From Amoebophrya sp. A120 (lineage: Eukaryota; Protista; Dinoflagellata): a stretch of DNA of 64,000 bases. Location of the stretch: assembly GCA_905178155.1 (NCBI GenBank), contig CAJINV010000003.1, positions 10,673,890 to 10,737,889 of the forward strand. The letters run 5' to 3'. Position 1 is the stretch's first letter; the number at the start of each line of letters is the position of its first letter. The notes under the pieces were generated by a model, which saw only the letters and a list, made by a program, of their open reading frames with translations, searched no databases and had not been told where the DNA came from. Shown here one piece after another: positions 21,643 through 57,729 of the stretch. The position numbers were made by a program, and so were the translations under genes.

Positions 21643-22353
21643 TTGCATGTCGTATGTGAACATGCGCTAGCTTCTTTCACGAGGATAATATACTGGCGGT
21701 ATAAGAACAGCATTCCAGTCAATTTTCGCCCACGCAAGATCGCAGGCTCACAAACAACCTCTGAGGTCATTTTGGAGGAAACCAGAGGACGGAGCCGACG
21801 GGTCTCTTTCGAGGAGCAGGAATTCACTGGAACAGTGGGCGACACGAAACTAGAAGACGTGCGGCACGAAGAGGAGGAGGATGCAGCAGTGGTCAGTGAT
21901 CGAGCTCCTGGTGCTCGTGGAGTCCTACTTGCATCTCCTCGCCAAGGACCTCCTTCCGTTCGCAACCGTCCCGACCTGGTTCGATTTCCTTCCCCCCCTT
22001 CAGCCAGCGAAAACTATAGAAGCAGCAATGTTGATGTTCTTCATTTTGATGAAGTCGGAAGCGTGTTTTCCGAAACCGATTCTGAGGAGGAGGAGGCACG
22101 CGCGCACTATGTTCGGAAATTTGTGCGGGCTTCTTTTCTCTGGCGGCATTCCTGGCGAATTCTCGTCAGCCTGATCCTGCTCACTGTCGCCGGCTGGAAT
22201 CTCGCAGCTTTGCCCCTGTTGCAAGATCGCAAATCGGACTACTGGAATCCGGACGATCATTTGTTCGTATTTTCGCCACTGTTTGGCTTCGTTGTGTTGC
22301 TTATTTTTTTCTTCTGGGTGCTACTTTGCTGGCCGAGATGCGCAGCAGACTGA
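21643..22353 (+). CDS. Small membrane protein with two C-terminal hydrophobic segments (start uncertain)
   Basis: 236-aa ORF with ILVSLILLTVAGWNLAALPLL and LFVFSPLFGFVVLLIFFFWVLL; same frame continues ~89 codons past the TGA. Confidence 0.55.
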   Translation: MHVVCEHALASFTRIIYWRYKNSIPVNFRPRKIAGSQTTSEVILEETRGRSRRVSFEEQEFTGTVGDTKLEDVRHEEEEDAAVVSDRAPGARGVLLASPRQGPPSVRNRPDLVRFPSPPSASENYRSSNVDVLHFDEVGSVFSETDSEEEEARAHYVRKFVRASFLWRHSWRILVSLILLTVAGWNLAALPLLQDRKSDYWNPDDHLFVFSPLFGFVVLLIFFFWVLLCWPRCAAD

Positions 22354-36070: not shown

Positions 36071-39000
36071 ATGGTCCGGTCCCCAGACAAGATGTATGCA
36101 TTGCAAAAGCGTATCGGTGTGGGGAGTTTGCACTTGTGACGCTTGTCGTGCATAATTTTAATTTCTGCAGGCGCATGACCGATTGTAAAATACAAGAGCG
36201 CCGCAGCTTCCTTCGTTATGCAGTGGAAAGGCGATTCGTAATTCATTTCCATCCTGGTACGAATCAGAAACAGAATTAACAGTAGAAAGAAGTTGTATGT
36301 GATGGTGCTTGGCCGCTGAAAGTAGTGGACACGTTTTAACACTCATCCCCAATTCGTCCCGCATCACAAGCTTCCAGACGAGAACCCGCAATACGAGTAC
36401 ACATTTGCAATGCATAAGATGGCGAAGAAGACCATTCCCGAAGCATCCCGTGGACAAACGCTTTGTATGTAAAGAGAAAATAAGTGTTTGATTTTAATAT
36501 TACATACATCCATGATTTTCCAACTGTTTTACCGGAGGACCAACACAAACCAGATTAAGATAAAAAACCTCTGTGGCGGTCATGCTTGAAGTTTTGCTGG
36601 TCAAGAACCTCGCTTCTTGCATGTTTCTCCCTGATGTGGTCCTGCAGGCCAAATCTGTGATGCTGAAAAGTCTGCGCAGCCGCAGTTGTGTTGAAATTAT
36701 AACTGTCGCGTCTCACTTTATTTTTTCTCTTTCATACTTTGGAACCTTGCAGCAATAGGGGACGTTGACGGCCTACTAAACCGGGCGAATGAAGTATGGG
36801 AGTGTCAGGTTGAAGATCGACAGAAGTGCAATTATTTGCGACGCATCAAATAATTGATGTAACAGTTTGACTCCCGCCGTCCCATGCCTAAGTAAGTGGC
36901 GCATGAAAATTTTTTTTGCGAGCACCTGAATCCAATTTGTCGCAAAGGTGTTTGGCGCAAAAGGGGCTGCTCGTGGCATTTTTTTTTCTTTAGCCGCCAC
37001 ATTCTTGTCCCTACTTAGGCTGGCGATCTGCAGCCTGCTCATTTGCCAGCTCTCCAATACAGGCACTCTGTGCCTCGCATTTCATGCATCTTCGTGCCAT
37101 CACATCGCGTGTCGTGATGGCGATGGCTGCGCAGGTCCGCCTGACTCTACGAACTGGTGACCTTTCCATCTGTGGAAAAATGCCATTAGCAGGTTTCGAT
37201 TGATTTAGAAGCGTAACACATCACTTCAACGGTACGTATCGATTTCAAGCCTGGCAGTTCTATACGAAACTAGCGAGTCCGTGGACCAGCGGGAACCCAG
37301 TACAACGCGAACTCCCTTATGGATAGCAGCTGCTGCAGGGTAATTTTTTTTTGCCACCTGGTGTCGTGGTTGTTACAGCATCGGTGTATCGTCCTCGAAG
37401 ACGTCAATTATATATAGAAACGCCCGGACATCGGGGCAGTGAGCTCCTTCAATTTGGACGATCGACGCTTGCAGTTGATTTTCTGCTGTACCAGCTGCCT
37501 TGTTCCGAATCATGCCAATACGTCTACAGCGGATTATTTGCACTATGGAAAAATCATTGATCTCCAAAACACATACACAAATAGGCATCTGGAGGCGGTG
37601 AAGCTGCTGATTGCACTGGGGGCGAACGTGACAAAAGAGAGCGAAGGCCTCACACCGGTGGAAATCGCGAAAAAAAGCGGACAGCTATCCATAATGAAAA
37701 ATTCCCGGACAGCAAGTAAATGAAACGATAGTACGCTCTCCGTGACGGTGTTTATGTTTTACCGTGACAAAGTGAAAGACAAAAGCAAAGCCTTAACCTT
37801 TTCCTTTATTTATGGGCTAGTACTTCTACTTCTGGTGATGTGTGGTCAAATTTACTGAACAACTTTCGTAGCATTTTGTTGGTCATGTAATTGTAAGCAC
37901 GGTGATTTTTTTACTGCATAACAGCCACACGTGGTCTACTATCTCAAATGCCAGCAAAATTACTTTCCGAATTTGAAGAACGCGGTGTCCCAGCCCACGG
38001 CCCGAAGAATAGCGCTGTTGATCGGGAACACGCACTACGAAACGCTCGAGCATGTACCCTTCGCAAAAGCAGACGTAGCCGTTGTGGGCAGGCGATTGAC
38101 CGCGATGAAATTCGAGACCTTTGTCCGAACGAACTTGAGTATTAATATCAACATCTTCGTGATTTTATTCATATTCAGAGCGTTTCGCAAAAATTATGTA
38201 AGAAAGGCCGCATCTTTTTTGCGGCGAGGACGTCGTACGTTGCGGAAAGATAAGAAGTAGAAAAAGGCTGCGTGCTACCAAGATGAAAAATCTCCCTTCC
38301 GTCTTCGTATTCACGCTGAGATTTGCATTTGTGTAGCATGATGATCAGATGATCTGTAATCACGAGCCGGGTTGGCCTTGGCGCGACAGAAACAGGAAAG
38401 AGATGTGGACTGTGGTGCTGGCTGGCGTGGGTGTGTGAAAGCATTGCGTCTTCAGTATCACAGGAAACAAGAACAACTGCACCGCCGGGAACAGTGATTC
38501 AGATTCTATTGGCATTTTAGCGATGCAAGTCGATTTGAGATTTGTGTACACAAAGTGCGCTGCAGCGGATATCTTGTTCTGAGTTAGTTAGTATATGGGG
38601 AAGGGGATTTCTCCTTGTACTATACCTATGCGTATGCGCAAGAGCAGGAGCAGGACCGTCTCCCTGTTCACCAATGAAGAAGTGCGCGCCTAAGGTTCCG
38701 CTTTCGCTCGCGAAAGAGGAGCAAGGAGCCGTAGTTCTTCAACACCCTTGTGCTTTTAGCATGATGCAGATGATACAACTGCAACCACTATCACTATCAC
38801 TATCTTGATCTACTTCATCACGACAGCATTAACATTTTTGATATAGGTACCGCTGCAATGAATGACAACGTAGACCAATTCTGCCAGAATCTCCGCGTGG
38901 GCGACGTCGCGCTTTTTTATTTTGCCGGTTTGGGCTGTAGGCAAGGAAGCCGCTCGCTGCTTTTTGGCGTCGACCGCAAGTTCCACCTGATTCCGGATGA

Positions 39001-42000
39001 GGACAGGGTATCAGTCGAGTCCATTGTGGAGGCCATGCCTATGGAAGCGTCAGGTTTGAAAGCGACAAAGTAGTTGAAATATCGCGACGCATAAAATGAA
39101 CACCAGTTTGCCAAGCGGTTCCTGCGACAAATTTCGGTGCGAGAGCCTAAATTCAATATTTATGTCGCATTGTTTGGTGCAGATGCAAGAGCTGCTTGTG
39201 GCATGCTCTTAAACTACAGCCGCATAATTACCCCTAATTGGGCTTACAATTGGCCTCATTTGCCTGCTCTTCGCTACACCTACTCTGTGGCAGATCATTC
39301 CAACTTTGTCAATTTCGAGGCTCGCGCCTCCATAATGCTGACACGCACCGGACAAAGGCGAAGGAGAGACGTGGAACTCAAACCGGTAACAAATTCCTCG
39401 GATCTTCTTGGTTCAGTTTCGGGCTTGTTCAACGAAGCCCGGCGAAGTATGTAGAAACTGGTGAAGAAGCACTTCCGTTCTCATCCAAAATTATATTAGC
39501 GACTGTCACTGACCTATGTATCGCTCTTCGTAACTACCAACGCAAAAGTAGGTATCGCACAACAACGTCGTGTGCGTATGCAGCTACGCGTAGCATAATC
39601 TGATGCCATATCATAGAAGATGAAGATCTAGATCATAATCTATCACATCGATAATGCTCTCTGACTTAGATGATTGATATTGCACGCGATGTGGTTTCGT
39701 TCTTCTGCAAAAAAGCGACTGGAATGGCATTCTTGTTTATTTTACTACAAGTGCAGCAATACCACACGCACACACATTGATTAAGTATGTTGGAGTGCAT
39801 TCTATCACACAAATATCGTGCTATGCCCATCTTTCGAAACTAAACTGAAGTCCATGAATCTACTACATGACATGCTTAATTGACTACAGGATCGAGCGCG
39901 ACGGCGAGAAATTGCACAAGCACGGGGCCCCTCGATTGTGATTTTGGACGCCTGCAGGACCGTTCAAAAAACCGGCTTCCGGGAAGCAGGGTACAACACG
40001 TCCACGAACTCGTCCTTCGCAGAAAGGGGCTTTTTCGACGATGGAATTACCCCAACGAAGGCACTTAAGGGCCACGGCATTGGTGTCATCGACACGACAG
40101 GCAACGGAACAACTGAGCAGGTGCAAATTTACATTTTTAGAATCGCAAATACTATACATGATCTGGTAACCAAATGCGTGCGCGCGCGCGCGCAGAGCGC
40201 GCGCCGGCCCACGAAGCCGGCGCGCGCGCTCTGCGCGCTTGCGATATTGCTTAGCAAACGCAGCGCGAAGGCAGTTGCCGTTACCATATAGGGCAACCGC
40301 CGGGAGGCGTGAAGGTCAGGGAAATGGCCAGAAATGAAGCGGGAGAAGGGAAAAAAAGCGGACCAGATGGGAAAATGGCCAGGAGGTCAAAAATGACGCA
40401 AAAACGGCAGAAACCAAGCGGGAGAAGGTGAAAAAAGAGCATTTTTGCGGTCTGGCCCACTTAGTATCTGAAAAAGAGGCGGACTATTTTTTGCTCCGCC
40501 CGCTGGCCAGCTGCGTTGGAGCAGCAGGCCCGCGACCTGTTCGGAAGCCTTGGGCCGCTTCGTAACTGGAAAAAGTTGGAAAAAAATGGCGAAAAATTGC
40601 TTCATAACGTGGGGGGAAGCAATCGTCGGATTTTGTGCAGATCACCCGGGCCACTTGGAAAATGAAAAAAGATGAGAAATTGCGCAAAAGCGCAATCCTT
40701 CCGCAGGCTTCAAAACTGCCAGTCAGATGCGGGCGGTAAAAGTGTGCAGGTCGCTGGGGCCACTTGGAAAATGAGAAAAGATGAGAAATTGCGCAAAAGC
40801 GCAATCCTTCCGCAGGCTTCAAAACTGCCAGGCAGATGCGGGCGGTAAAAATGTGCAGGTCGCTGGGGCCACTTGGAAAATGAAAAAAGATGAAAAATGG
40901 CGCAAAAGCGCAATCCCTCCGCAGGCTTCAAAACTGCCAGGGAGATGCGGGCGGTAAAAATGTCCAGGTCGCCCGGGCCACTTGGAAACCAGAAAAAGAG
41001 AAAAAAATGCGCAAAAGCGCAATCCCTCCGCAGGCTCCGAAACTGCCAGGCAGCTGCGGTCGGTGAAAATGTCCGGAGCCCTTCGGCCACCTAAGAACCA
41101 CAAAAAAGAGCGAAAATTGAAAAAAACCGAGAACCCTCGGCAGGCTTACAAACTGGCCGCCAAGGGCGGTCCGGCGGGCGCGTGGTCGCGCCATACCATC
41201 GGGATTGTGAAAAAAAAAACGCATTAGAAGCGGGCGGAGGGATGTCACAAAATCCCTATTTGCCCTGGTTTGTGGGCACAAATCCTGCACCTCCGCCGCG
41301 TCTGAAATGCCCGATTTTGGTGGCCCGGAAGGGTCCGCGGAGATTCGGCTTTCCACATACCTTCTTGGCCAGGAGGCCAGTTTGTCATGCAGGGGGCTAG
41401 AAAGGATGCCCCGCTGCGAAATAGCAGACCGGATTTCGCCTTCAATGCTTATCGCAGGAGCCTGCGGGCCGCCGCGGGCGACAGTAGTTGTCCGCGGCCC
41501 TTGGGCCGCGACCGCAAACTGCGGCCCGCGGCTCAAGAAGAAGAAGTGGGATTCTAATTAAAAGAAATGGTGGTGGCAGCCGCGCGGCGAAAGCGCGGCC
41601 CGCAGGGCCGCGCTTTTGCCGCGCGGCTGGTTTGGCTTTCGCGCTGGTTAGATTTTCGCGCACGCATTTGGTTACCAATATCGCCCTCCGGGCGCGATCT
41701 TCATAGGTGAACGTTACCGCAATGCTGAAGCGCTACAGCCGCCGAAGCCAATGCATGCTAGTAAGTAGGTGCATCAACTTCAACGAACGCGAACGGTTAC
41801 GCAAAAAAACAGAGCTACACCACCGCCACCAGCAGCACACGACCGGAGCTTTCGGGGCGGGCGAAGGCGTCGCTTTCCCACCGGCAGCATCTATTTTATC
41901 ATGCGAAAAAATTGCTTCCCTGTGATGATTTTGTTTTTGTAGAACTAGCCACGTATGCTTCGCCTGTGGAAGTGTGAAACAAAATTCAATTATTCCGCTA

Positions 42001-45000
42001 GACCGAAAAACAAAAGAGCCAGGACAGGAGCTCAAAAATAAAAAACGAAAAGCCCGGGCCAGAAGCAGCTCCGCCCCGTTTGCGGTTGCGGTTGTAAGCA
42101 GATATTGACTGCGGTCGCAAGCAGTTTTTGCGGTTGTAAGGCGTATGCGCGGCTGTGCTAACAGCTGCGAGCAGTTGTTGTGGCTGGAGTGGTTTTTGCG
42201 CCACTTTTCTGCATGCCGTGGCTGCCATTTTTCGTGCCGAATTGTGGGTAGGTCTCCACAGGCGACAAGAGTCCCTTGCTTTTCCACCCGATGCAGGCAC
42301 TGCGTGCCGAGATCGTTTTGCTTAGGCTTGGTCATTGCCTCCCGCCAGCTCTTCAAGACTTTCAAAGCCTGGGGCGTCGTTCTTCCTTCCAGCGCCGCGC
42401 GCGCTTTTTTAAGCCAGCTCTGACGACCTTGCCTCCTATTTTTGTTGCTTGTCGAATTCAAAAGGTTTGCAAGCTCTGCTGTTGGCCCTCATCTTCGAGC
42501 TTTGCCTTTCCTTTTGCTTTCAACTTTCACTTTTGGACTTTCGCCTTTGCTTTTAGTTTTTGCGTTTGCTTTTAGTTTTTACCCGTAGCTTAGTTTTTAG
42601 CTTTTACTTTTAGTTTTTACTTTTAGTTTTTACTTTTACTTTTAGTTTTTACTATTAGTTTTTACTTTTAGTTTTTACTTTTAGTTTTTACTTTTAGTTT
42701 TTACTTTTAGTTTTTACTTTTAGTTTTTACTTTTTGGCTTTTGCCTTGAAATTGCGAAACAATTGTTTGGCCGTCACGACTTTACTCTTAGCAAGGAATA
42801 GATTATGCGCATGAAGATGAACAGCAGCAGGACGAGTTCGTCACCAATGACGCATGTTTGAAAGTTAAACTCTGCAGCGCATGTTGCGTCCCAATCTTGA
42901 GAAGGAAATACTGCTAAACTGAAAAATGGTGGTCCTGGTCGGCCTCCACATTATAATTGCATTTCTACGAGCTGCTGCTGCAAGACATACTGTTTCTAGA
43001 TGCTGCCCTGCAGTTCAGTAAGGGTAAGGGAGTTCACAGCAAAGCAGGTTGCGCAGTTCGATACTGTAACCACGATGAACAACAAGCCAATTGCCACTGG
43101 TGAGCTTTACCAGAAAGTATCAACTGCAAAGAGGCTTGTCGGGGTCTGGAGAGGAGGTTACTACTTATGTTGATGTCCAACCAATCACGCAACTGTTACT
43201 GTAGTTCCAAAAATACAGAGATCTGCATGAGCAGAAGCAGTCTTTTGATGGCCGAATGGTGGCGATGGGAAATCACATTTTGCATGACCACAGGCTAGCT
43301 CCCACCCAAGCTGCCGCCACTCTGCGCCACGTGCATGTAGAAGTATTGCAGCTCCTGTTCATCTAGAGCACGCGAGCGATACAGGTGGTGAACTCTTCTC
43401 GACCAAGATTGATGCATGTTTGCCAAGCATGTAGTGCCTTGGGGAACAAAAACGCGGTGCACATGAAGAGACCCTACACAAGGAAGGAGCTTGCCTTCAT
43501 TGAGCAGCACGGCGCGGAGGCACTGGCAAGACTCCAAGCCATGGGCGGTACCGCCACTGAGCCATTCCCGTCAACGGGAGCCGTCAAGAGCTTTCCGTCC
43601 AGCTGCGGACCACAGCTGGGCTCCATGCCGGTGAAACACCTGAACCACTACCCCGGAAATCGAGAGCCGGTCTTGGGCCAGGAAGCTTTGTGGGCAGATT
43701 TGCAGGAACGGAAGGAAGATACGAGGTGAGTGTATCATAAATGCCCTTGCTCTTCTTGAAGAGCAAGCCTACTACTTGTTACAACTTTTTGTTTTTGTAT
43801 GTTAACCTTCTCGACAGAATTCGTCCAAGTTGTCGAGTGCATGTTTAACAGACGCAGATCTTCAACAATCTTCATGACCGTGATGCCGGAAAGTGTTGGG
43901 CTTTGAACACACCGGGGGCGGCACTGAGTGGCTAACGCGTCAACGTCGGCGTCCTTTTCCGAGGTGCCTCAGTCTCTCGCTCTCTCAGCAGACCACACGG
44001 CGAAGGCCTCTGATTGCGCTGCGTTCTGTGAAGATGCGACAAAGTTCCCGCATCATCGTCGTCGTTTCCTTCTCTCTCTTCTCATGCATCACTTCGCCAG
44101 GCGGCCTCTGGTCCGTCAGAATGGACATCAGAGCGCGATTCAGCTGCATCTCGAGAATGCCATCCGACTCCTCGAGGATGTGCGAAGACTTCATACACCT
44201 TGACGAGCGAGGGTGGGCGCTGATTTTACCCACCTCGCCGGAGGTGCGCGGAGATTTCATCAAACTCGACGGAGATGGGCAAGGATAATTCACTCACCTC
44301 GACGAGGAGGGTGGATGAAAGGTTCATCCACCTCGTCCTTGATTTCAAGCCTTTTCTTCATTCTTCGGAACAGGCCGTTGCGTCTCGGATCAACATCTTG
44401 AGAAGCTTTAGACCATTGCGCGGGAGGGTTTAGATCACACACATGACGACCAGCAAAAACTTGCATAGGCCAGCCGTCGCCCCAATATATAAACAAGCAT
44501 AATGCTAACGAATGTTATGAAAGCTTATAGCTCTACTTCAAAAAGTTAACGCTTTTTCTCAGGCGCGCCCTCGGTCCGAATGATCTCCCGTTAGCGAGTG
44601 GCACAGACCGGAACTTCTTCAATGGCAGCGGGCAGCACCTGATCCAGGACACCCGCCGGGATGGTGCGACCCCCGCGTCGGGCAGTGGCGGTGGCGCCGT
44701 TGGGGGTCCCCGCACAAATCGAATGGCCGACGATTCTGCAGCCGGTGCTGGCGGAGCCGCATTTGTATCCTCTACACAAGTGTGCTCGTAGTCGTACTGC
44801 ATCACACGTATCGGGTTTTTTCCTGACGGTACTAGGCCAAGAAGAAATTGCATCTTTATAATTGACTGGACAAAAGTAAGTATATGTAAATCACTGCTAT
44901 TTGCATCTGCTCGACGTTTGACTCGACTACGACACATTTGCAACGCATACGTCCCTGGAGCTACAGCTAACCCCTTGCAGTCTCTCAACTACAACCCGAG

Positions 45001-48000
45001 GCTATCCGGAGGAAAAACGCCCCGCCCGCCAGCACAATATCGCATCGTCAAGCTGGAAACTCAGATCCGCGTAAAAAGTGTACGCGGTAGTGATTATCAA
45101 GCACAGGCTTATCTTCATCACAAAGCCATCAGCTTGTGCTGCAGTTGATTCAAAAAGAAGTGCATACAAAAAACAAGACACGACTAGAAATACCAGGCGT
45201 CGTTTTAACGAGGTGCAGGCGCAACTTAAACTTCTTCCCTGGATTGGCATCACAAGGCTTGGGCGCTGAGTGTCGTGTTGCAAATAATTATTCAATTATT
45301 CGCAACACACTCACCCAATTAAGTTGTGTAGCATGTCCGCAAGTTGTCATCTCTGGCCGATGGTGGGGCGTTTTTAACCAGGATAGAGGTACGGTGTCGG
45401 GCGCGAGGAGATCCTCGACGAGAGGGAAGAAAGGCACATGCGCAGTCAGGAACTCATCCCAGATATGTTGGGACCACGCCACTCCCTCTTCTCCTCAAAT
45501 TTGAATGAAAGGCACCTGCGCAACAGACCAGAGGAGCAACGCTGCAGCTACAGCTTTTCTATTTTTCCTTGCGTGGCACTGGCATCAAAATCAAATGCAA
45601 AAGCAAAAGCTAAAAGCAAATCTAGATCTACCCGTCGCGGTGTGTAGTGTTGTTTTGGGTCCTTAATATTCCGAAGCTTGTCAATCAGACTACAGAGAAC
45701 GGAACTGGATCTGGTACAAATTCGGCCGAAAAGTGGCCTTCCACCCAGAGCCCATTTTTAGATGGACAAGGTTCACCAGGTTTCTTTAATTATTCGAGAT
45801 TTGCAGCTGACCACCGGGCGAGGGGCGTGGGTCCGTCCCACTTTTCACCCACCCGGCCGGGCGCGTGAAAAGTGAGACGGCCACTCTTCGGCCGAATTTC
45901 CTACGCCGCTCTAATGAAAAAAAACTGCGCACCTGGATGACAAACGCGCAGCCATGTAGATTCGAGCAACACAGAGTGTGCTTGCGGTAAATAATTTGAA
46001 GCTATGTGGAAATCGTCCTGATATGTATATGGTGCCCAATGGTCCTGGTGTGTAGTTGTCTTGCACCTTGCGTGTGGACCAAGAGTGATAACAACCCTAA
46101 AGCTCCTGACGTTGGTGCTCGCACGTTTTGAGTTTGACTTTGCCGTGCTGTCGCCCTAGTAGTTTGCGCGCGTAACAAAAAGAGCCCAGTTTACTCTGTC
46201 ATGCAAAATGCCAGCGCAGCCGCAGCGGGAGGAGCTGCTCGTGCTAGATGATTCGCCTGCAGCTGTGGCACAGCTGACGCCTACTAGTTTACGTGATGAC
46301 GCATTTGGCTGCGATTGACCTGCCTGATGGTGCGGGAGGTCAAGCGCCCATGAGTGTGCCACCTACAGACAAAACAGGGGGCGGCAGTCACAATGGCGCG
46401 GTCTGCATGTGGACGTGGCGCCCCCTGGGTCCGGCTGCGCACTGCGGCGTGGTCATGCTGGTCTCTGCTTATGCATCGAGTACGAGTTGGGGAGACGTAC
46501 AAGGATAGTACGAGCATTAAGAAGATGAAGCCACTTCATAAAAGAAAATAATGCAGGACAAGAAATAAAATTAAAAATGAACAGAGGCGGGAGAGTTGCG
46601 CATGTCCATACCAGATCTCGGAGCGACATCAGATGGCTATAATCTCATGATGACCAGCACGGGGGACTGGAAGCCAGCCGAAAGCATGCGGCCGGAGGAG
46701 CACCAACCCTCGGGGACCGACCATTACAGCATCGCTTCTCGGCCAGATGCGAGTAACTTTCCCGTGTTCCAGACACTAAATCCCACAAATGCGAGGACGG
46801 AGGAAGAACGAGTAGAAGACCAAGACTACGCATTTCATTTGTTGTCAGAAAAGGACAAACACGACACTAGTGTGCCCTGTACATGGTTCGCGCAGACTGA
46901 TGCACAGGTATCGTTTCTTCTGATGATCTAACTATCTTCTATGTACATGTAGATAGAAATGTCGATAGCGTTGAAACAGAAAATCGCATCCAAAAATCGT
47001 TGATGATTTTCCTAGGAATTGCCGCCAGTGGTCCACGGCTGAGTCGTTCGGTCTCAGCTGCTACCGTTTTGCTCTGCACTTCACTGCGCCATTCATGTGG
47101 ATCGATTTTTTCTTTGAACAAGTTAGTAAAAGCGAAAAGGAAAAACCAAACCAACTACTCAGATCGGTAGTATCCTGCGCACCCAATTCGGGCCAAACAC
47201 ACGCCTGGGCGTTTTGGATGATCCCCACGCTGGAAATTTTCGAAATTTCAATGAAGACTCCAGATACGCAAAAGACAACTTTCTTTCGCAGACGGGCTCA
47301 AGCTTGATCAACAATAACGCGCACAAACCCAACGCGGCCATGGGCGCATTTTCCTTTACCAGCGGAGCGGGGGGAGCCGGGACGATGAACCGGAGTTGTA
47401 CAAGCTTCCAAAACTTCGTCACACACACAGCGCTCAACAAGCGCGGCGTGGAGGAAAACCGCTATTACGGACGCTACAACGGTCCTACTTCGGACGAGCT
47501 CGAGTACGGAGACAAGTACTGTGTTGGCTCCGTGCAATATGACAGAAGTGCGTGCAAAACTACTCCCCCTCCACGTCATTTGAAGAGCTGCACGACGGAG
47601 GCACGATCACACATGAAAACGGAACCACAAATGCAGAGCGTCGAGCAACTGTTTTCATTTTCAAACTGATCATGCAGCAAATAACGCCAAAAATTAGAGG
47701 ATGCCTCAAGAAAGCATAAGCAAGGCTTCTAGAACAACAACTGCAAGTGTAGAAGAATTTGGCATGCTTATCCTCATTATGATGCGTGAGCGTGGCGAAA
47801 GGAGTAGGGGGGCGGTGGAGTTGTGAGCTCATATGCTACCTGTGGACCGGATCTTCAACCCCGGACTCCACTCGCAAGATATTCTGAACGACGAAAAGAT
47901 TGCAATCCTGTACCAGTTTCTTGTGATCAAACTTTGCTTTTTTCACTGAATGCCTTCAATGCCCACGGAGAAGGTGAAGCATACTTAAGTATATTGCTTC

Positions 48001-49823
48001 TCGGCTTAATCATATTGGAGGTCGATCGGCAGGTTTGACTTCTCCGATGTAATTGATGCCCAGCACTTTCACTTTCGAGCCACGTTCTTTATGCCCCGGA
48101 ACAGTACTCAATTTTTTGACTACCAGGTATAGCCACACCCCGACGGATATCCACAGCAAATATTGGTATGTCTGGGTCTCTTGTGCAATTGAATTCTCAT
48201 CTGCCAGCGAGCCGTATGCAGGAGGATTGGACTACGGAAGGACGTCACGCAACTCCTGCATGCCGTGGTCAGAACCAGAAGTGCAGGCGCTAAGTAGCAT
48301 GAGCGCAGATTTTGCAACAAGTGCAAGGTCTTTACTTTGTCGTATAGCGACCCCACGACAAACATGACAATCATAATTCCTCCGTCTCAATGAATCATGA
48401 TATACGTGCTCGCAACTCGGCCAAAGTATAGAAGATGGGCATATTATTTTGAGAGAAGTCCCGCAATGGCAATACCGATTTTGGATGACACGCACACACT
48501 GAGGCTGACACTGTCACTGGACGCCGACGGCGCATCACAAGGCTGCTTAATTTATAGACGCAGAGCCAGACTACAACACATTTGCGTTGCATACGGGAGA
48601 TTTGCGACGAGGACGTAGCGTTTGACGCACGTGGTGATGCTGCCCTGGCCACCCAGACAAGTATGTTTGCGCACTACACCGACGAAGTTTTATATCCCAC
48701 GAAAAAAGTATTGATTCGCTGTATGGATTTTGCAAGGTTTGCATCACAAGCTTGCTCTAAAAATTGTCATGCGAGCCTCTAGGCACATAGAATGTGAATG
48801 AAAAGCAAAAGATAAAGAATTCCGCTGGCGCATAAAAAAGCTACCTCCACCTCGTCGAACTCACATAAGAACTCAAATCTGAATACGTTTTTGTAAGGTG
48901 TATGTGACAAGTTTTTTGTGATCTTACTTCCTCCACCTTTCTATTTTTATTTTTAGGGCCGTGAGTGCCGAAAGTACCAACGTCAACGACCTGCCCTTAG
49001 ACCTCTGATGTCATGCGAGCCTCCGAAGGGAGCACGAAAACAACGGTAAAAAACCACTCTTTTGCATGTGTCGCAAGAAAAACTCTTGCGAGATGCATTT
49101 TCTGCATAATTACATAGTTTACAGCGAAACAGTTTTTTCTTGCGATATTTTAACCACGCCTGGCGGCCGACTGCCAGAGCTTGGCACGCGTAATCCCGTC
49201 TCGCGACGGATGGTATTCTATGTAAAAACGTCCCCAGCACCCCATAGTCACGCTGGGAATTTTGCAACACAAATCGAGAAGCTTTGGCAGTCACGCATGA
49301 CAAGCGTCTCTCTGTAGTGTCGTGCAGGGTAGCAAAGAAAGCCGCGTCACGAACCCATCTGGTGATCCCGTCCACAACATTACAAATGCTAAAAGTAAAA
49401 CACGACGATAATGTACATTAATGCTTCTCATCGGGATGCGCATTACAAGCGTTCCTGCGTATGCAAATCATCTGCGTGACCGTGATAACTTGTATGAAGG
49501 AAGCATAGTGCTGTGCCGCACTTCTGCTTAGCATGACGACTATGGGGTACGGACGTTTTTACACAGGATAGATGGTGCTGGAGATTCAGGACGCGCCCTT
49601 TCCTGGGTCCGTGGGCTGGGATGCCAGCCGCAGCGGTTTCTCCAATATGGGCGACTACAGTGCGCAGCGGCCCAGTCTCTTCGGGCACGCAGTGGAGCAA
49701 GCGCTCGTAAACCACTACAAGCTCCGGGATGCGTTACGCAGCGTGTCGGTCAAGGTGATGGCAGCAAGCAATCGCGTCCAGAAACCATGCATGCAAGACC
49801 GAAAAATCGATATCTGCCTGTAA
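36071..49823 (+). CDS. Ankyrin-repeat + caspase-like (peptidase C14) protein; exons resolved 36071-~40120, 3' exons (46600-49823) only partly resolved
   Basis: Spliced: RGQTLWNLAAIGDVDGLL...RTPLWIAAAAGHLEAVKLLIALGANV...TPVEIAKKSGQPHVVYYL; RRIALLIGNTHY; DVALFYFAGLG; SIVILDACR; p10-like RPSLFGHAV...LRSVSVKVMAASNRVQKPC at 49572-49823. Linkage across 40.1-46.6 kb is inferred. Confidence 0.7.
36095..36416. mobile_element. 322-bp introner (family A)
   Basis: Perfect DR AGATG; perfect 13-nt TIR TATGCATTGCAAA. Confidence 0.92.
36466..36736. mobile_element. 271-bp introner
   Basis: Perfect DR CTTTG; TATGTAAAGAGAAAATAAGTG vs TATGAAAGAGAAAAAATAAAGTG; splice GQTL|WNLAA. Confidence 0.9.
36795..37264. 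mobile_element. 470-bp introner (family B)
   Basis: TATGGGAGTGTCAGGTTGAAGATCGA vs TATAGAACTGCCAGGCTTGAAATCGA; DR TGAAG/CGAAA; frame kept into SESVDQREP. Confidence 0.82.
37686..37920. mobile_element. 235-bp introner
   Basis: Perfect DR ACAGC, TAT...ATA; splice KSGQ|PHVVYYL completes an ankyrin repeat. Confidence 0.88.
39040..39334. mobile_element. 295-bp introner (family B)
   Basis: TATGGAAGCGTCAGGTTTGAAAGCGACAAAGT vs TATGGAGGCGCGAGCCTCGAAATTGACAAAGT; DR ATGCC/ATGCT. Confidence 0.85.
40164..41677. mobile_element. 1.5-kb non-autonomous TIR element with internal 109-bp tandem array
   Basis: Perfect 21-bp TIR TGGTAACCAAATGCGTGCGCG; GC-rich subterminal palindromes; no clear TSD. Confidence 0.8.
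40648..41080. repeat. ~4 x 109-bp tandem repeat
   Basis: CCACTTGGAA recurs at 40651, 40760, 40869 and 40978. Confidence 0.92.
42570..42735. repeat. 13-bp minisatellite (TTTTAGTTTTTAC)n
   Basis: AG recurs every 13 nt (42670, 42683, 42696, 42709). Confidence 0.9.
47538..47833. mobile_element. Probable 296-bp introner
   Basis: DR TGCAA/TGCTA, TATGA...TCATA ends; frame continues as PVDRIFNPGLHS; TIR weak. Confidence 0.55.
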
Positions 49824-51994
49824 GAACGGGCAGAAGATGGTCGCGCGTACGCAATTCGGGTGCCGCAGCAAATGGAACCACTAATCGCATGCCAGTGCGT
49901 CGAAGTTTCAGTTTCATTTATATACCAAATTCCATTTCTTGCAATTTCATGTTGACGTAATGTTTCTAGAGCTTATAATATAGACTTGTTTCATTTATTT
50001 CTACTGATATCATTTTCATGCAAAATATTTAGGAGCCACTTTACAGTAGATGATGCTGCAAGGAATCACAATGTATACACCAAGCTAATTCTACCGGCGC
50101 AAAAACAGTAGACTCCTATTAACCGCATGAGTAGTTAGTTTGTATGTAAAAGATGTTTTTCGGATCGGTCTACGTTCAAGATCTGGTATATGCCAATACT
50201 ACATGACCTGCAGGTGCAGTTGCCAATGGCATGTGGAAATCTTCACTATATCTAAAAGACATGATCCACGTGCAGCACGAGGAAGAAGAACATTACCATA
50301 CGCCAGGACATCAGAAAAACCTGAAGAAATGTAAAATTACGGTTTTGGCCAGCACAGCCACGACCGCGTTGTTACATCGGGCTTGAAAGAAAAAGGAAAA
50401 CTGTATTTGTTGCGGCCTACAACTGTTTCTACCTACGGGTACTATGGAAGTGGTGCGCTCAACATCTCACCGCGTCGTTGACCGACTTGTGATGAAGGCT
50501 GGTGTTCTCTACTTCAGGTGTTCGAGTCACAGTGACGCGGTCTACTTCAGGTAATGTGTGATTATATTCCACCTCGGAGTCGGACTTAAACCCGGCGGCA
50601 ACGCGGCCGAGGCTCGAACTCTCTGCCTACTTTTCAGCATAGACCGCCTTGCTTTGGGCAACTCCAACTAGTGCTGGCTAAATAAAAAACTTCCCATACA
50701 ACATTATCTATCATGCACAAATTTTGGACTTGAATTTGGAAACAGCAGCACCACCCCCACGGTCATGCCCTAACCAATTTGTACCGGATCTTTGAAAGCG
50801 CTTCAAACACTTACTGTTTACGTACACATAGCCGCACGCGCGCGCTTACTTGGTTATATTACCGCGATTCTGTGTCTGTGAAAAAAATTTACAAGTACAA
50901 ACGGACGAAACTGACCGAAAATACATCACTATGAAATTCAATGCTAGGTGGAGGTCAAGTAAAAGCACGAGAGTAGAAATAAGGCATCCGGATCTAGGAT
51001 GATTCTCCAGTCCCAGTCGCGGGCCTCCGCGATTGCAAAGCAGGATTTTTTGATTACGCATCATTCCACCTATCTGCGCCAACGCCACTCGTGCTCATTC
51101 GTTGAATTTCGACGCCTCAAACAACTTTCGCGGTGATCAAATAAATCACACGAAGGACAAGAAAGGATTGCGGCGCATCGGCTACCTTCTTCGCTCTATT
51201 GGTATCAGACCTCGGCACGGAAGTTGCGCTCTGTCAAAACTTTCGAAGGGAAAGCAAGCTATTTTTTCGAGAAGGGGTGTGTTTGGAGTAGGTCTACGTA
51301 GAAGAGACGCAGAAAGACGGAAAGCTGCAGAAGTGACTGCACTGCTAGTCCTCGTATTAGTGCCGGTTATCGTACTGCTAGTACAGAGACAAATTCGTTT
51401 TATTTCTGTATCACATTTGCGAGAACTATCCCCCATCCCCATGCTCGAGGCGCTTTCCTATGTATGAAAATAAGTGTACTACACAAATAAAAAATAGAAA
51501 TTATTTCAGTCCACCTGCAGAAAGAAATTTCAGATTCAAGCCCATCCATCGCAAGCACGAGACTTAGGCTTTTGGCAAGGCGACTGGCATGTCTCCATGG
51601 CGATGGAAATTATAGCAACAATACAGACTAGAAATACAGCAACAATACAGAAAAAGATACAAGTACAAATCTCTCCTCGTGCTTTGGGAATATAAATTTC
51701 CTGCACCGTGTCAGTGTGGAAAGCGCTGCGCCTCTAGCTTTGTCTTCTTGCAACAGCACGGATTTATTTTGTAGCCGCAAATCTACATTATCAGAGGTCC
51801 TCCTCGCATAGTGTGTGTAAGCGAGAAGATCCACCTGCGCCTTGTTTCTTGGATGGATACTACTAGTATGATAGTGAGAATATTTCTAAACGTCTACAGA
51901 AAGAATATCACAGGCGCTCTCTTTCAGAAACAGACTAGGGAAGGGGGATTTTTCATCATAATGCATCTAAGCATCCGACGTACAGACACCCACG

Positions 51995-54900
51995 ATGGCG
52001 GACGACTACGATCACCTCATAAAATTGTTGCTGTTGGGTGATTATGGACTGCAAAAGTGTCGTCCCAGTATGAGAGATTGTTTTTGTTTGCATGATTTGC
52101 AATAAAGAATACTTCTCTTTCTCGAGAAGCTCGCGATTATATGGAATTCCCTCAAGCCATAGACCTGTCATGCCCGACGCCAACTGCAATCAGTGTGACT
52201 ACGAGCGTCATACTTTTGCAATGCATAGCGATTCAGCTGTAGGCAAATCGTCGCTGCTGATGAGATTCACCGAAGACAAGTACGTCGTGGTTGCAGCAGT
52301 AGTTATAGTTGATAATGTTGCTTTGATATATAAATTTATGATATAGATATTTCACTATGATCATTTCCGCAAAGCCAATTGTTGACCTTGCCTCTCGCAC
52401 TTGTAGACTGAACAAGATACCTCCACCACCCTTGTGCAAAAAAAAAAAAACACCAGATTCGAACAGAATTTCGTGATTACCATCGGCGTTGATTTTCGCA
52501 TGAAGACGATCGAGCGAGGCAACAAGAAGCTACGGGTGCAGGTTTGGGATACCGCGGGACAAGAGCGGTTTCGCACGATCACGCCGGCCTACTACCGAAG
52601 TGCAATGGGAGTTGTATACGAGAGTGCATAAATCCTCCTCGCTCCTTCGTCCCCTCGCTTGATGATGTTATTCAACAACCACGCAGCTTTGCCAGTTGTT
52701 CATTTTCAATATGTTCGCTTGACCATGTGGCAATGACTGAGAAGGGACTCCAGCAACTCAAACAGTTACAGTAGCAGCACTACAATCCGCCATAAATTTC
52801 AATTTGTCATGCAGACGACATCGACTTCAAATTCAATCACCTTTGCAGCTAAGTACTGCTTCGGCTTCTGTTGCTGCTCGTCATGGCCTCCAAGAAATGA
52901 CGGGGAGTGGGACCGAGTTTTGTTGCACTTTCATATGCCCATGTGCTACGACATAACGGATATCAAAAGGAAACACGATCCCCCGTCCCCATATCGAAAC
53001 GAAGTTTCTGATGTTGGATTTGCGTAGACAAATCAGACCTGTCTTGCTGGAGAGGACTGCAGGCCCATATCAAGCCGGAGTAGAGAGGTTTTGGCCTGGG
53101 CGCTTAGCATGAAGAACGTCCGTAATCTAGAAGGCCCAACAGCATCGCAAACTGTTGGTCATGTAGTGATCTAGGGCCTACCTCCACGCAAGACTGAAGC
53201 TTCTACGAGATCCCGAAACGCCTGCGCTCTACATGCAAACGATGACGAGTTGAGCAAATCAGGACCCTAGGACGTTCCGCGTTTTGTTCTCCCGATCTGT
53301 ATGCCCTGGGCTAGGATTTTACTCAGGACCGGCGCCCTGGATAAAGCCCTTACCCAGGATGGCCGCCCTAGATCAAACCCTAGCCAGGAAGATGCTATGG
53401 CACCAATTTGGCCGACCTCAGGAGGTCCCAGATTCTGGCCAGTTCCTGGATCAAAACTTTAGCCAGGAGCGCCGTCCTAGATAAAGTCGCAGCATACAGA
53501 AGGGGAGACGTCTCATGATCTTAGCGCTGAGGTCTTGTGATGGTGGAATGATGAATGATGGCGCGCCTTGGATGGTGAATCTTCACAGGATGCAACGCAG
53601 CCAGAGGCTCTCCCCCTGTCTGCTCAGAGATTGAAGCGCTTGCGGTGATTGGCAGACCCTATCAGGTAGAAGCTTTGGCCACTCAGTGGGGCGGGTGTGC
53701 TCAAAGTCCAGCACAAACACAAAGCGCCGGCATAATGAGGCGGAACCTGTGGCGTTGCCATTTTGCAAGACAGGCGCGATCTGTGGCCACAAATCAGCAA
53801 AAGAAATACTCGAAAACATACCATGCCAATATGAGGAGGGGGAGTCTTTCCTTTTCATAACGGACGACGCGACTTTCGACAACGTGGAGATGTTATCCTG
53901 TGCAAAAGTATCGCATTCGTACTAGCAATGCCAGCTTCGCCTGGAAGTAGGGATTAGAAGATACGCAAACGTCAGCTAGCTAGCATGGCTAGATAGCGAA
54001 TTAGAAAGAAAAAAGCGCCGGGCCCCGAAGCAAAACAAAGCGCCGGCGCGCCCAATGTGCTTCGTTGTCGCGGCTCCCGCGCGCCCAGATTGGTCGCTCC
54101 ATTTCCGGCTCCCCAATCTGATCGTCCCGGCTCCGAGGTTCCCGATCTGGTCGTCCCGGCTTCGGCGCGCCCAATCTGGTCAACCCGGCCCCGAAGGTGC
54201 ATGGACGTGACTCGGTGGCGCCGGACAACTTCGGACCCGTCGGATTATTTTTGGTTGTCCGGCGAAGGTCGTCGGGCGACTTTTGGCCGGCCGTCCGTTC
54301 GAGCGCCGGCCGTCGGACGACTTTTCGCCGTTCGGCGGCCGTCGGACGACTTTTGGCCGTCCGACGGCCGTCGGGCGATTTTTGGCTGTCCGATGGCCGT
54401 CGGGCGACTTTTGGCCGTCAGACAACTTTCGGTTGCCCGACGGCCGTCGGACGACTTTCGGTTGTCCGGCGGCCGTTGGGCGACTTTTGGCCGTCCGACG
54501 GTCGTCGGGCGACTTTCGGTTGTCCGACGGCCGTCGGACAACTTCTGAGCCGTCGGGTCCGACGGTCGTCGGGCGACTTTTGGCTGTCCGACGGCCGTCG
54601 GACAACTTCTGAGCCGTCGGGTCCGACGGTCGTCGGGCGACTTTTGGCTGTCCGACGGCCGTCGGACAACTTCTGAGCCGTCGGGCGAATTTTGGTTGTC
54701 CGAGGATGGCCGTCGGACATACAACTGCTGAGCCGTCGGGCGACTTTTGTCCCAAGCTCAAACTCGAGCTTGTATCTCAAGTTCAATCTCGAGCTTCTTG
54801 TGCCTCAGACTCAAACTGGAGTTTCTATCTCAAACTCCAGCGTGTATCTGAGTTTCAAACTCGAGCTGGTGTCTCAAAATCAAACTGGAACTTGTGTCGC

Positions 54901-57729
54901 AAACTCGAGCCTCACACTTAAACTCAAACCTGAAGCCCAAGCTCGAGCGTGATGAAACTTAAGCTCGAGTTTGAAACTCGAGCTCATCGATAACTCATAT
55001 TAATACAAACAGAATCCCCTGGCCACAGAGAAACGGCAAAAAATTTCAAGACGCGCGCGCGCGCGCGTTACGCGCGCGCGGGTAACGCGTGCGCGAGCGC
55101 GGGCGCGCGTAATGCGCGCACGCGCGTAACGCGTACAGGGCCGGCAGGTTGCGGGGGCGGGGAATGGGGGGGGCCGCGCCCCCCCCCCCCGGCCGGGCAG
55201 GCAGGCACGCAGCCGGAAGGGAGCGGCAGCTGGCGGGGGCCGCGCCCCCTCCTCGGCGGCCGGGGGCCGGGCGCCGCGGGCACGCAGGCAGGCGGCCGGG
55301 AGCGGCAGCTGCCGGGGGCGGGGAGTGGGGGGGGCCNNNNNNNNNNNNNNNNNNNNNNNNNNNNNNNNNNNNNNNNNNNNNNNNNNNNNNNNNNNNNNNN
55401 NNNNNNNNNNNNNNNNNNNNNNNNNNNNNNNNNNNNNNNNNNNNNNNNNNNNNNNNNNNNNNNNNNNNNNNNNNNNNNNNNNNNNNNNNNNNNNNNNNNN
55501 NNNNNNNNNNNNNNNNNNNNNNNNNNNNNNNNNNNNNNNNNNNNNNNNNNNNNNNNNNNNNNNNNNNNNNNNNNNNNNNNNNNNNNNNNNNNNNNNNNNN
55601 NNNNNNNNNNNNNNNNNNNNNNNNNNNNNNNNNNNNNNNNNNNNNNNNNNNNNNNNNNNNNNNNNNNNNNNNNNNNNNNNNNNNNNNNNNNNNNNNNNNN
55701 NNNNNNNNNNNNNNNNNNNNNNNNNNNNNNNNNNNNNNNNNNNNNNNNNNNNNNNNNNNNNNNNNNNNNNNNNNNNNNNNNNNNNNNNNNNNNNNNNNNN
55801 NNNNNNNNNNNNNNNNNNNNNNNNNNNNNNNNNNNNNNNNNNNNNNNNNNNNNNNNNNNNNNNNNNNNNNNNNNNNNNNNNNNNNNNNNNNNNNNNNNNN
55901 NNNNNNNNNNNNNNNNNNNNNNNNNNNNNNNNNNNNNNNNNNNNNNNNNNNNNNNNNNNNNNNNNNNNNNNNNNNNNNNNNNNNNNNNNNNNNNNNNNNN
56001 NNNNNNNNNNNNNNNNNNNNNNNNNNNNNNNNNNNNNNNNNNNNNNNNNNNNNNNNNNNNNNNNNNNNNNNNNNNNNNNNNNGGGCGGGGGAACGGCGGC
56101 CGCGGGTCGGGCGGGCAGGCGGCAGGGATCGGCAGCGGGCCAGGCGGGGGCGCCACGGCCCGATGGGGGCCCGTTACCGATGGGCCCCTGGCTTAACGTT
56201 TAGATGGGGCTGCGCGCCGAAGCGCGGTTGGACGACACCGACGGCACTTTTTGAATTAACGTTTGGACGAAAATCTTGGCGCGCAGTTTTTTATTTTTCG
56301 AAGTTTCTTAATATTTTTCGAACGAACGACAGCGCGCGCGGTTTTTCTACCTAGCCGCACGAATTCCGCGGCCTTCAGTCTGTAACTTTTTGCTTTAACT
56401 GTACTGGCCAGGGGCCGGACTGCTTTCCCTAGTATTGTAGATATATAAGATTGCTTGCAAACATGCATTACAAATCTTTTTCTTGAGGTCGTAGATCAGC
56501 ACGACTACAAATTTCATTTCTCATGCTGGGAAAATTTAAATTTGTAAATGTAATGCGTTTATTTTTGTACGAGTACTACGTACAGAGCGATATTTTTGCA
56601 ATGCATAGATGTGGCTAAATAACCTCGACCAGCACGGCAGTTCCGCTATGACCTTCGTAGATGGAGTCTTAATCTCAACCAACGGAGCATAATTTATTTA
56701 TAAAGAAAAATAAATGATGAAGAAGATAATCTGTCACTGTCTAGCTCTACTCGTCTGGGTACTGAGCATAACATTAGACCTGGCGCTCCTGCAGATTAGG
56801 AGCGCCAGGTCTCGTGGCGACAGGAATTCGTTGGCATTTAAAGACGCAGCACGCGGACGAGACTCTCACGTCACTGTCTACAATTACAATTGCTCCAGTT
56901 GGGTTTGATGCTTCTTCAGCTGGCCATTTCATATCCGACGTCCAGAAAATTTTGATCGGCAACAAGAGCGACCTGGAGGAAAAGCGAAAAGTGCCGAAGG
57001 AGCGCGGCTTCGAGCTCGCGGCCAAGCATAAAATGCAGTTTTACGAGACCTCCGCGAAAACGGGGGATTTTGTCGAGGACTATCCACAGAAAATTTACCA
57101 TGCGCGTATGTCTCATTGTGTTTTTGCATGACGTCAATGTCAATGATTTTTACTCTTTATAAGTTTTTCGTATTTGCAGATGCAGTGTCATTGTGTATGA
57201 TTGTGATTCCAAGCGGCGAAGAAAATTCGTCGTGTGTATCATTATTTTGTAATGATCCAAATAGTAGAAGTAGACGAAAAGAAATAAGTACTAAGTACAA
57301 GGATTGTCGCAATCGCGCTCATTGTTCCAGTAAATCTAAATGATCCTGTTGCGCGCTCTCTCGCTATGATTTCCGTTTTGCTGAAAATTAGTAGAACAGG
57401 TCATGCGTTTTGTACTAAGTGTAAGTACGTTGACGTCGCATGCGGGAAATGATTTGTACTCCTTGTATAAGGGCGCCTTCAATGACATCGCCGACGCCGT
57501 AGTTGTCTGTAGGTACTCTGGCGATGCAGCAGGTAGCAATACTGCAAGTCCCTCGGCAGCGGGTGGCAAAAATACAACTGGAGCAAGTGCGCCCTCCGGT
57601 TCTAGTGCAGCCGCCTCCTCAGCAGGAAGCGGCTCAGCAGGGCAAAGCGGTAACATCACGCTCACAGCAGAGAATGCAGCAGGTCCGGGAGGACACAAGA
57701 ACAAAAAAAAAGGGAAGTGTGCCTGTTGA
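51995..57729 (+). CDS. Rab8/Sec4-like small GTPase, 244 aa, 8 exons (51995-52042, 52233-52279, 52457-52616, 52941-52960, 53865-53893, 56613-56646, 56939-57080, 57475-57729)
   Basis: [15 protein letters not shown]|[17 protein letters not shown]|[13 protein letters not shown]...[24 protein letters not shown]|MCYDIT|[10 protein letters not shown]|[11 protein letters not shown]|[13 protein letters not shown]...ETSAK...VED|AF...CAC; all G motifs and a CXC prenylation site; 735 nt in frame. Confidence 0.93.
52043..52227. mobile_element. 185-bp introner (family A), Rab intron 1
   Basis: TIR 14/16 (TATGGACTGCAAAAGT/TATGCATTGCAAAAGT); DR GTGAT/GCGAT; interrupts the P-loop. Confidence 0.92.
52617..52935. 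mobile_element. 319-bp introner with decayed DR, Rab intron 3
   Basis: TACGAGAGTGCA vs TATGAAAGTGCA (10/12); flanks TTGTA/TGCCC no longer match, but element+5 nt removal gives AMGVVMCYD. Confidence 0.8.
52961..53859. mobile_element. 899-bp introner, Rab intron 4
   Basis: Perfect DR ACGGA; TIR TATCAAAAGGAAA/TATGAAAAGGAAA extending ~35 nt. Confidence 0.92.
54230..54750. repeat. Tandem array of ~30-bp units built on the palindrome CCGACGGCCGTCGG (higher-order ~60 bp)
   Basis: Repeated GTCCGACGG(C/T)CGTCGG(G/A)CGACTTT units; followed by CTCGAG-rich and CG-run segments. Confidence 0.9.
55337..56082. other. Assembly gap (746 N)
   Basis: Run of N flanked by very GC-rich sequence. Confidence 1.
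56647..56933. mobile_element. 287-bp degenerate introner, Rab intron 6
   Basis: DR TCCGC/TCCGA; TATGA...TCATA; needed to join HGSS to [10 protein letters not shown]. Confidence 0.85.
57081..57469. mobile_element. 389-bp degenerate introner, Rab intron 7
   Basis: DR AGGAC/AGGGC; TAT...ATA; joins FVED to AFNDIA. Confidence 0.85.

Follow-up and report, generated by a model that had tools for sequence, protein, structure and literature searches.

How introns are delimited if their ends carry no recognizable signature is a question raised by a Rab GTPase gene of Amoebophrya sp. A120, a marine parasite of algae, which is interrupted by introner elements. The gene lies in a stretch of 64,000 nucleotides (nt) of gene-dense eukaryotic DNA from this strain (contig CAJINV010000003.1, positions 10,673,890 to 10,737,889), which we call the window and in which all positions given here are counted. 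Analyzing the junctions in this window, we found that nearly all of the introners examined are removed in one register, which is fixed relative to the element ends and to a 5-nt direct repeat flanking them.

The introners of A120 have already been described by Farhat et al. 2021 (PMC7789003), who counted 29,850 of them, representing 68% of the non-canonical introns. They consist of an inverted repeat beginning with TAT, a variable middle part and an A-run, with a direct repeat of 3-5 nt across the borders (5 bp in the example given in the legend of Fig. S19). They are described as lacking a clear terminal signature. In the legend of Fig. 3, the position of the splice sites with respect to the hairpin is termed "variable" and the borders "unknown", the legend of Fig. 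S23 likewise treats the cut as variable, and the question of how borders are found without a signature is left open. In a review of 2024, the motifs are still described as highly variable.

Splice register of the introners

The elements of the window match the published introners in strain, TAT inverted repeat with A-run, direct repeat and non-canonical removal, the latter as seen in putative RNA. Across 20 introns, positions +2 to +4 read T (20), A (20) and T (19), followed by an A-rich stretch at +12 to +15, and the pattern is mirrored at the 3' end, with decay in some introns. Because the two flanks were identical in 15-19 of 23 introns at each of repeat positions 1-5 and in only 3-6 at the flanking positions, we set the length of the direct repeat at 5 nt. 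Terminal inverted repeats combined with a duplication of fixed length are traits of miniature inverted-repeat transposable elements (MITEs), and the 5-nt repeat is likely a transposon target duplication. Pairs of TAT...ATA with at least 11 of 14 matches in the inverted repeat and at least 4 of 5 in the direct repeat occurred 12 times, compared with 1.1 times per shuffle in 10 block shuffles.

Junctions were obtained from contigs of the putative RNA runs X3 and X4 on positions 42760-54100 (14 joints listed) and of runs X1, X3, X5 and X6 on 20700-40600 (15 of 28 joints listed, one of them only in X1). None of the runs is on record as RNA; this status is a guess for X3-X6, and X1, whose type is off record, looks genomic and is possibly the source of the assembly. 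The register prediction had been fixed in writing before the joints were examined. In addition, we probed 10 rows of loose contig ends, five of which gave a joint within the window and five none; the mapped ones comprised three further elements (41896, 53893 and 18135), a canonical intron, and a nested joint, which was not counted.

The 28 listed putative-RNA joints comprise 7 plain GT-AG introns and 21 joints of other kinds, which represent 20 introns, one of them with two acceptors. All 21 have an equivalent cut with TA[T/C] at +2 to +4 and AT[A/G] at -7 to -5, a combination shown by a random joint in 0.1% of draws. If the mapped loose ends are included, a cut after base 4 of the repeat (register 4, N-TAT...AT[A/G]-NNNN) fits 22 of 23 introns, as compared with 17 for register 3, 14 each for registers 2 and 5, and 12 for register 0. 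Twelve introns are informative on the register: three fix it exactly at 4 (44765, 51408 and 52616), and the others allow 4-5 (two), 3-4 (two), 3-5 (one), 1-4 (one), 0-4 (two) or 2-6 (one). Register 4 is thus included in 12 of 12 cases, which has a probability of 9e-6 if the cut fell randomly among registers 0-5 (5e-5 for any common register). The rule does not depend on an intact repeat, as had been proposed in the initial annotation of this DNA: five introns with at most two of five matching repeat positions all fit register 4.

In the Rab gene, the features are arranged as follows.

51995..57729, + strand: Rab GTPase gene, Rab1/Rab8-like (PF00071), 244 amino acids; the register-4 splice product agrees with the deposited A120 protein P0001
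51995-52041, 52232-52279, 52457-52615, 52940-52959, 53864-53892, 56612-56645, 56938-57079, 57474-57729, + strand: exons of the Rab gene
51408..51964, + strand: intron of the 5' untranslated region (UTR), G-TAT...ATA-ATGC, repeat and stem decayed; exact joints 51407>51965 and 51407>51968 in X3 and X4
52042..52231, + strand: introner T-TAT...ATA-GCGA, repeat GTGAT/GCGAT; joint allows registers 2-6
52280..52456, + strand: canonical GT-AG intron, from putative RNA contigs
52616..52939, + strand: introner A-TAC...ATA-TGCC with a decayed repeat (TTGTA/TGCCC); contigs of X3 and X4 place the cut precisely behind base 4
52960..53863, + strand: introner A-TAT...ATA-ACGG, perfect repeat ACGGA; absent from spliced contigs, register not resolvable, outside the 23 introns
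53893..56611, + strand: 2.7-kilobase (kb) introner T-TAT...ATA-GATG, perfect repeat GATGT, containing tandem repeats and a gap of 746 N; the loose end at 53893 maps to 56613
56646..56937, + strand: introner C-TAT...ATA-TCCG, repeat TCCGC/TCCGA; protein evidence only, cut at base 4 or earlier
57080..57473, + strand: introner C-TAT...ATA-AGGG, repeat AGGAC/AGGGC; protein evidence only, cut at base 4-5

The initial annotation had deduced the register from three sites of this gene at which the two repeat copies differ, namely 52612 (TTGTA/TGCCC), 56642 (TCCGC/TCCGA) and 57076 (AGGAC/AGGGC). We found these repeats as described, and splicing register by register showed that all three agree with a cut after base 4, although the protein alone only bounds it: valine at 52612 requires base 4 or later (proline at 0-2, alanine at 3), aspartate at 56642 base 4 or earlier, and Asp-Ala at 57076 base 4-5. 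The deposited protein P0001 indeed reads GVVMCYD, SSDVQK and VEDAF at these sites, and its three closest relatives share GVVM and DVQK in 3 of 3 and VEDAF in 2 of 3 cases. The exon at 56940-57080 is 100% identical to a 244-residue Rab GTPase filed under Amoebophrya sp. A120 at NCBI, and the orthologue of strain A25 shows 89% identity. A metagenome scan with the Rab sequence recovered 4 distant loci (37-59% identity), none of which was an empty site. At 52612, the putative mRNA in X3 and X4 contigs settles the position: it reads TTGT followed by C ATG TGC, in agreement with the prediction that the left copy contributes bases 1-4 and the right copy base 5, and the 12 letters between at the joint at 52615 are those from 52940 onward. 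Of the ten mismatched repeats named in the initial annotation, the joints cover this one and three more, at 36790 (bases 1-4), 39035 (0-4) and 52038 (2-6), with ranges which each include base 4.

The other introners of the window with putative RNA joints or mapped loose ends are the following.

44765..44953, + strand: G-TAT...ATA-CGTC with a decayed repeat (ATTTG/CGTCC); X3 places the cut precisely behind base 4
43117..43435, + strand: G-TAT...ATG-TAGT, registers 4-5; RNA joint, a TAG ending 1 nt earlier is unused
47537..47837, + strand: A-TAT...ATA-TGCT, registers 4-5; RNA joint
41896..43067, + strand: T-TAT...ATA-CTGT, repeat decayed, registers 3-4; mapped loose end
45002..45389, + strand: C-TAT...ATA-GAGG, registers 0-4; RNA joint, GC-AG reading at register 3 possible
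20927..21327, + strand: A-TAT...ATA-AGGA, registers 3-5; RNA joint, the AG within the right repeat is excluded
21475..21691, + strand: C-TAT...ATA-ATAT, registers 3-4; RNA joint
36794..37268, + strand: G-TAT...ATA-CGAA, registers 1-4; RNA joint
39039..39338, + strand: C-TAT...ATA-ATGC, registers 0-4; RNA joint
24622..26005, + strand: perfect repeat GAAGG, GT-AG in register 4; RNA joint
29051..29177, + strand: perfect repeat TGGGG, compatible, uninformative; RNA joint
29506..29879, + strand: perfect repeat CTACT, high-copy family; RNA joint
36094..36420, + strand: perfect repeat AGATG, compatible, uninformative; RNA joint
36465..36740, + strand: perfect repeat CTTTG, compatible, uninformative; RNA joint
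37685..37924, + strand: perfect repeat ACAGC, C-TAT...AG in register 4; RNA joint
45463..46614, + strand: perfect repeat CCAGA, compatible, uninformative; RNA joint
48692..49151, + strand: perfect repeat TTTTA, compatible, uninformative; RNA joint
49213..49574, + strand: perfect repeat GATGG, compatible, uninformative; RNA joint
18135..20742, + strand: exception, with a conforming A-TAT donor and the AG directly after ATA as acceptor; loose ends at 20742 in X3 and X5

Among the 22 introns that follow the rule, no two share a pair of terminal dinucleotides in register 4 (22 different pairs), and only one is GT-AG; this reproduces the published lack of a signature and bears out the claim that +1 and the 3' dinucleotide are free. 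The exons after the acceptor start with A (8), G (6), T (5) or C (3), i.e., with a purine in 14 of 22 cases. By contrast, T at +2, supplied by the element as predicted, and A at +3 are present in 23 of 23 introns. Of the proposed triplets, TAT and ATA hold for most introns; the acceptor triplet has to be widened to AT[A/G], with ATG also at 43117, and the donor triplet is TAC once, at 52616. For the same register, the initial annotation had cited an exact GT...AG at 24622/26005, several GT donors before TAT, and an AG acceptor at 37923-24. All of these exist; because G at +1 is not enriched (9 of 23, binomial p 0.11), we do not regard them as support. AG dinucleotides close to the acceptor are skipped at 20927, 52042, 51408 and 43117, the last being weak evidence because the use of that AG would shift the frame.

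Several observations weigh against a strict rule. The acceptor of 18135-20742 lies 3 nt earlier than expected, in frame and in contigs of two runs, while its donor conforms. The 5'-UTR intron at 51408, placed there by an in-frame stop 8 codons upstream of the ATG, has two acceptors, one 4 nt after ATA and one, ending at 51967 (ATG-CATC), 4 nt after ATG, with depths of 43 and 53 in X3 and of 128 and 169 in X4. Moreover, 11 of the 23 introns are uninformative on the register, their repeats being perfect or their acceptor unmatched. The anchors of decayed introns were assigned after the joints were known, TAC and ATG being accepted in one or two instances, and the data cover one window, with contigs from a single study that are guessed to be RNA. 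Such contigs drop minor junction variants, and the figures of the second set refer to the 15 of 28 joints listed and leave aside 81 further loose ends. The initial claim of a fixed geometry stands for 22 of 23 introns, and has to be relaxed for the acceptor, which is not invariant. In the 5'-UTR intron, both acceptors lie 4 nt past an AT-purine triplet in a region free of frame selection, and the joints listed there include none after the ATC 3 nt earlier and none at the AG 6 nt downstream. We hold the fixed register itself with high confidence.

Mechanism of removal

How this register is achieved is less clear. We consider it probable that the TAT...ATA inserts are removed by the major spliceosome. 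It would retain the TA(T) donor core of ordinary introns and place the acceptor by its distance from the triplet, not by an AG. A transposon generating a 5-bp duplication would insert, and the offsets of 1 nt at the donor and 4 nt at the acceptor would add up to these 5 nt; the mRNA would thus retain exactly one repeat length, and an insertion would be silent whatever its target sequence. With both signals located in the symmetric ends of the element, either orientation should work. The triplets may pair briefly (+2:-5, +3:-6 and +4:-7, with U-G tolerated), perhaps replacing the U1 small nuclear RNA (snRNA), the A that never varies at -7 may serve as branch nucleotide, and the longer inverted repeat would be mostly a transposon relic that possibly holds the acceptor in place.

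We favor the spliceosome because canonical donors share the core (among those listed, TA at +2/+3 in 6 of 8 and TAT in 3 of 8), because both kinds of sites mix, because spliceosomal parts are reported for this organism, and because there are precedents for non-GT/AG removal and for constrained distances between branch and acceptor. Mixing is seen in the non-GT donor A-TAT of 18135, which is joined to an AG, and in GT donors joined to non-AG acceptors. The reported parts include 83 of 89 proteins, Prp8, and the U2, U4, U6 and, for A120, U5 snRNAs, but no U1 snRNA (PMC7789003). Introner introns with non-GT/AG ends are removed by the U2-type spliceosome in Fritillaria (bioRxiv 2025.08.15.670264), and branch-to-acceptor distances are constrained in other lineages (PMC2483917). 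On the other side of the balance, positions -9 to -5 do not resemble the usual branch consensus, and the mixed donor-acceptor case is a single intron seen through loose ends. The chemistry of the spliceosome uses G at +1, and the terminal AG in the second step, both of which are free here.

The same joints would also fit a dedicated, non-spliceosomal excision that is guided by structure and takes its measure at the base of the terminal helix formed by the RNA, a route proposed for the nonconventional introns of Euglena; we regard it as rather unlikely, while still the strongest competitor. The Euglena code N3-CDG...CH'G-N5-6 has a parallel anatomy with a strict donor and a looser acceptor spacing (PMC12501133), and the reported absence of U1 (PMC7789003) would suit such a route. 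The A120 triplets at +2 to +4 and -5 to -7 are complementary, the -5 base is A or G, either of which can pair with U at +2, and +5:-8 pairs occur in three Watson-Crick types. Yet terminal inverted repeats would by themselves produce this complementarity, and for the same reason the best pairing register across 20 introns, which runs through +2:-5, is uninformative. G-U pairs did not exceed A-C mismatches (9:22, 17:25 and 25:27 over 10, 14 and 16 positions), so that this test gave no sign of selection for an RNA stem, and the terminal pairs had a probability above 0.5 in 11 of 18 folded introns and were improbable in the other 7. TA at +2/+3 is common to canonical donors, and a hybrid intron occurs here, as opposed to Euglena, where hybrids are called rare (PMC12501133).

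The initial annotation had the position measured from the hairpin base. This is supported insofar as the two introns with deviant acceptors have weaker inner stems (1/13 and 2/13) than any other, a post hoc observation, and not by the pairing and folding results above. The five introns with decayed repeats keep their triplets, with a mean inner stem of 5.6/13 compared with 8.3 for perfect repeats; the correlation between repeat decay and stem decay was not significant (rho 0.36, p 0.09). We conclude that the triplets are under selection, and that the long hairpin is not required and may steady the acceptor. Measurement from the hairpin base and from the AT[A/G] triplet are indistinguishable in these data.

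The published view of a cut that varies within the repeat, with register 4 as just its commonest outcome, appears improbable to us. It can draw on the legends of Fig. 3 and Fig. S23 in PMC7789003, on the two deviant acceptors and the minor forms hidden by contigs, and on the intron at 45002, which is readable as GC-AG in register 3; against it, register 4 lies within the range of every one of the 12 informative introns and is the exact cut in three. Farhat et al. called junctions with Hisat2/Regtools (PMC7789003), and the apparent variability may arise because an aligner cannot place the cut within a perfect repeat.

That the joints do not reflect splicing at all is very improbable: a hairpin with a direct repeat is a classic setting for template switching by reverse transcriptase, DNA excision would also produce joints, and the run types are guessed (X3-X6) or off record (X1), but the joints stay exact even at elements with a decayed repeat and stem (51408, 44765 and 41896), they restore a 244-residue Rab protein conserved with its relatives and a frame of 1022 codons over 22 exons, and X1 keeps every element intact without a joint, with low-depth intron-retaining contigs beside joined ones in X3 and X4. 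The X1 contigs, at a flat depth of about 44, span the elements without differences and carry 0 of the 14 RNA joints, so that the removal is not fixed in the DNA sampled.

Comparison with known systems

Relative to the A120 introners of Farhat et al., organism and elements are the same, and the difference lies in the cut, which is variable in that publication and in one register for 22 of 23 introns here. In the literature searched, we found no statement of a fixed register for Amoebophrya, with the reservation that the figures of Farhat et al. and subscription papers may hold part of it; the passages available of PMC12130899, PMC11282704, PMC12005148, PMC11453091, PMC9860276, PMC12621601 and 10.1101/2020.10.14.339549 contain none. 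Table S4 of Farhat et al., with T at +2 in 9 of the 9 top non-canonical types of A120, and the modal repeat position hint at the rule (PMC7789003). The elements are therefore known, the splicing rule is new and RNA-supported on a small sample, and the mechanism is a proposal. In the same table, 9 of the 9 top types of strain A25 read TT-NN, and A25 repeats begin with TTA; this strain may follow a sister rule that also places T at +2 and A at +3. By comparison, AT5 and the parasite of Karlodinium retain GT-AG, and the latter also retains U1.

The nonconventional introns of Euglena (PMC12501133) share free terminal bases, complementary triplets at fixed distances from the cuts, a strict donor with a looser acceptor and a likely MITE origin. 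Their signature differs, with CDG/CH'G at +4 and 5-6 nt from the acceptor instead of TAT at +2 and AT[A/G] at 4 nt, and in that distant lineage a purine begins the exon and hybrids are rare, whereas A120 accepts any base at the exon start. The non-GT/AG introners of Fritillaria borealis (Henriet 2019, as described elsewhere) are likewise transposon-derived, abundant and non-canonical beside canonical introns, and provide the U2-spliceosome precedent; they differ by preferred AG-AC and AG-AT ends and a conserved U1, compared with free ends and no U1 found in A120. In Polarella, Symbiodinium and Aureococcus (10.1101/2020.10.14.339549 and PMC9860276), splice sites are recruited from the target duplication and the mRNA is unchanged, as here, and Polarella class 12 even shares the 5-nt duplication and a +2 base from the element. 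For these introners, G[TCA] and AG have to be present within or next to the duplication, which limits insertion to certain functional sites and makes the frame dependent on the AG, whereas A120 requires no duplication base. With ordinary U2-type introns, the A120 introners share the donor core of T at +2 and a purine at +3 (TA in 23 of 23), but not the GT (GC)...AG termini.

The hidden code likely lets elements insert anywhere in a gene while the protein remains unchanged. Going further, it is conceivable, if somewhat doubtful, that N-TAT...AT[A/G]-NNNN represents a second code throughout the A120 genome, read by a U1-less spliceosome that needs neither G at +1 nor a terminal AG, with the intron's 3' end replacing U1. 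Offsets summing to the duplication length would make insertions silent and would explain the invasion by approximately 30,000 elements, convergently with Euglena and with a sister code (TTA at +1) in A25. One positional rule leads to predictions on the lariat branch site, on changes in snRNAs and Prp8 and on genome re-annotation. If true, abundant eukaryotic splicing would be possible with both terminal dinucleotides free, Euglena, for which the logic of paired triplets plus spacer has lately been proven, would be joined by a second independent case, and it would be explained how a transposon becomes a harmless intron at any site.

Further elements and repeats in the window

A search of the window against Rfam gave 0 matches. 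Among the introners, the element at 29507-29875 is clearly repeated: X1 depth rises to 8820 in the bin 29332-29995, compared with about 44 elsewhere, and loose ends with differing flanks occur at 29875. The 37 elements of the window show little similarity to each other, as an all-against-all comparison gave 8 matches, short or nested, which is not enough to demonstrate that both orientations of insertion occur. The joint 29868>39040, seen only in DNA, was discarded as a repeat chimera.

The introner at 18135-20745 contains nested inserts, namely a TATA...TATA element of 297 nt at 18152-18448 and an insert of 2.28 kb that is rich in repeats. In one contig of X5, positions 18443-48 are connected with 20724-29, which represents either a partly spliced intron-within-intron intermediate or another genomic copy without the insert; the joint 18443>20724 was left uncounted since it may stem from such a copy. 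The elements at 18152-18448 and 59256-59657 have TATRTCTGGGTCT ends and no matching 5-nt repeat at the standard position, and the latter separates two long open frames.

Positions 35800-50422 form one gene with approximately 22 exons and 1022 stop-free codons, two of its joints being inferred from lengths, and with an ankyrin-like stretch near 37590, as judged by eye. A 20-nt micro-exon at 48127-48146, flanked by the canonical intron at 47910 and by the element 48148-48593, can be deduced from the lengths of the contigs and keeps the 1022-codon frame open; it equals in size the 20-nt exon 52940-52959 of the Rab gene.

A 1.1-kb element at 31313-32402 with 118-nt terminal inverted repeats (92%), internal repeats of 30-40 nt and further copies in X1 is unlike the TAT introners. 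A high-copy repeat at 40155-41800 (X1 depth about 4000 at 39956-40600) includes a tandem array of four 109-nt units within the canonical intron 40121-41812. Finally, the GT-AG intron at 38139-38846 has a GTAT donor and ends with ATATAG, and is possibly an old introner converted to an AG acceptor.

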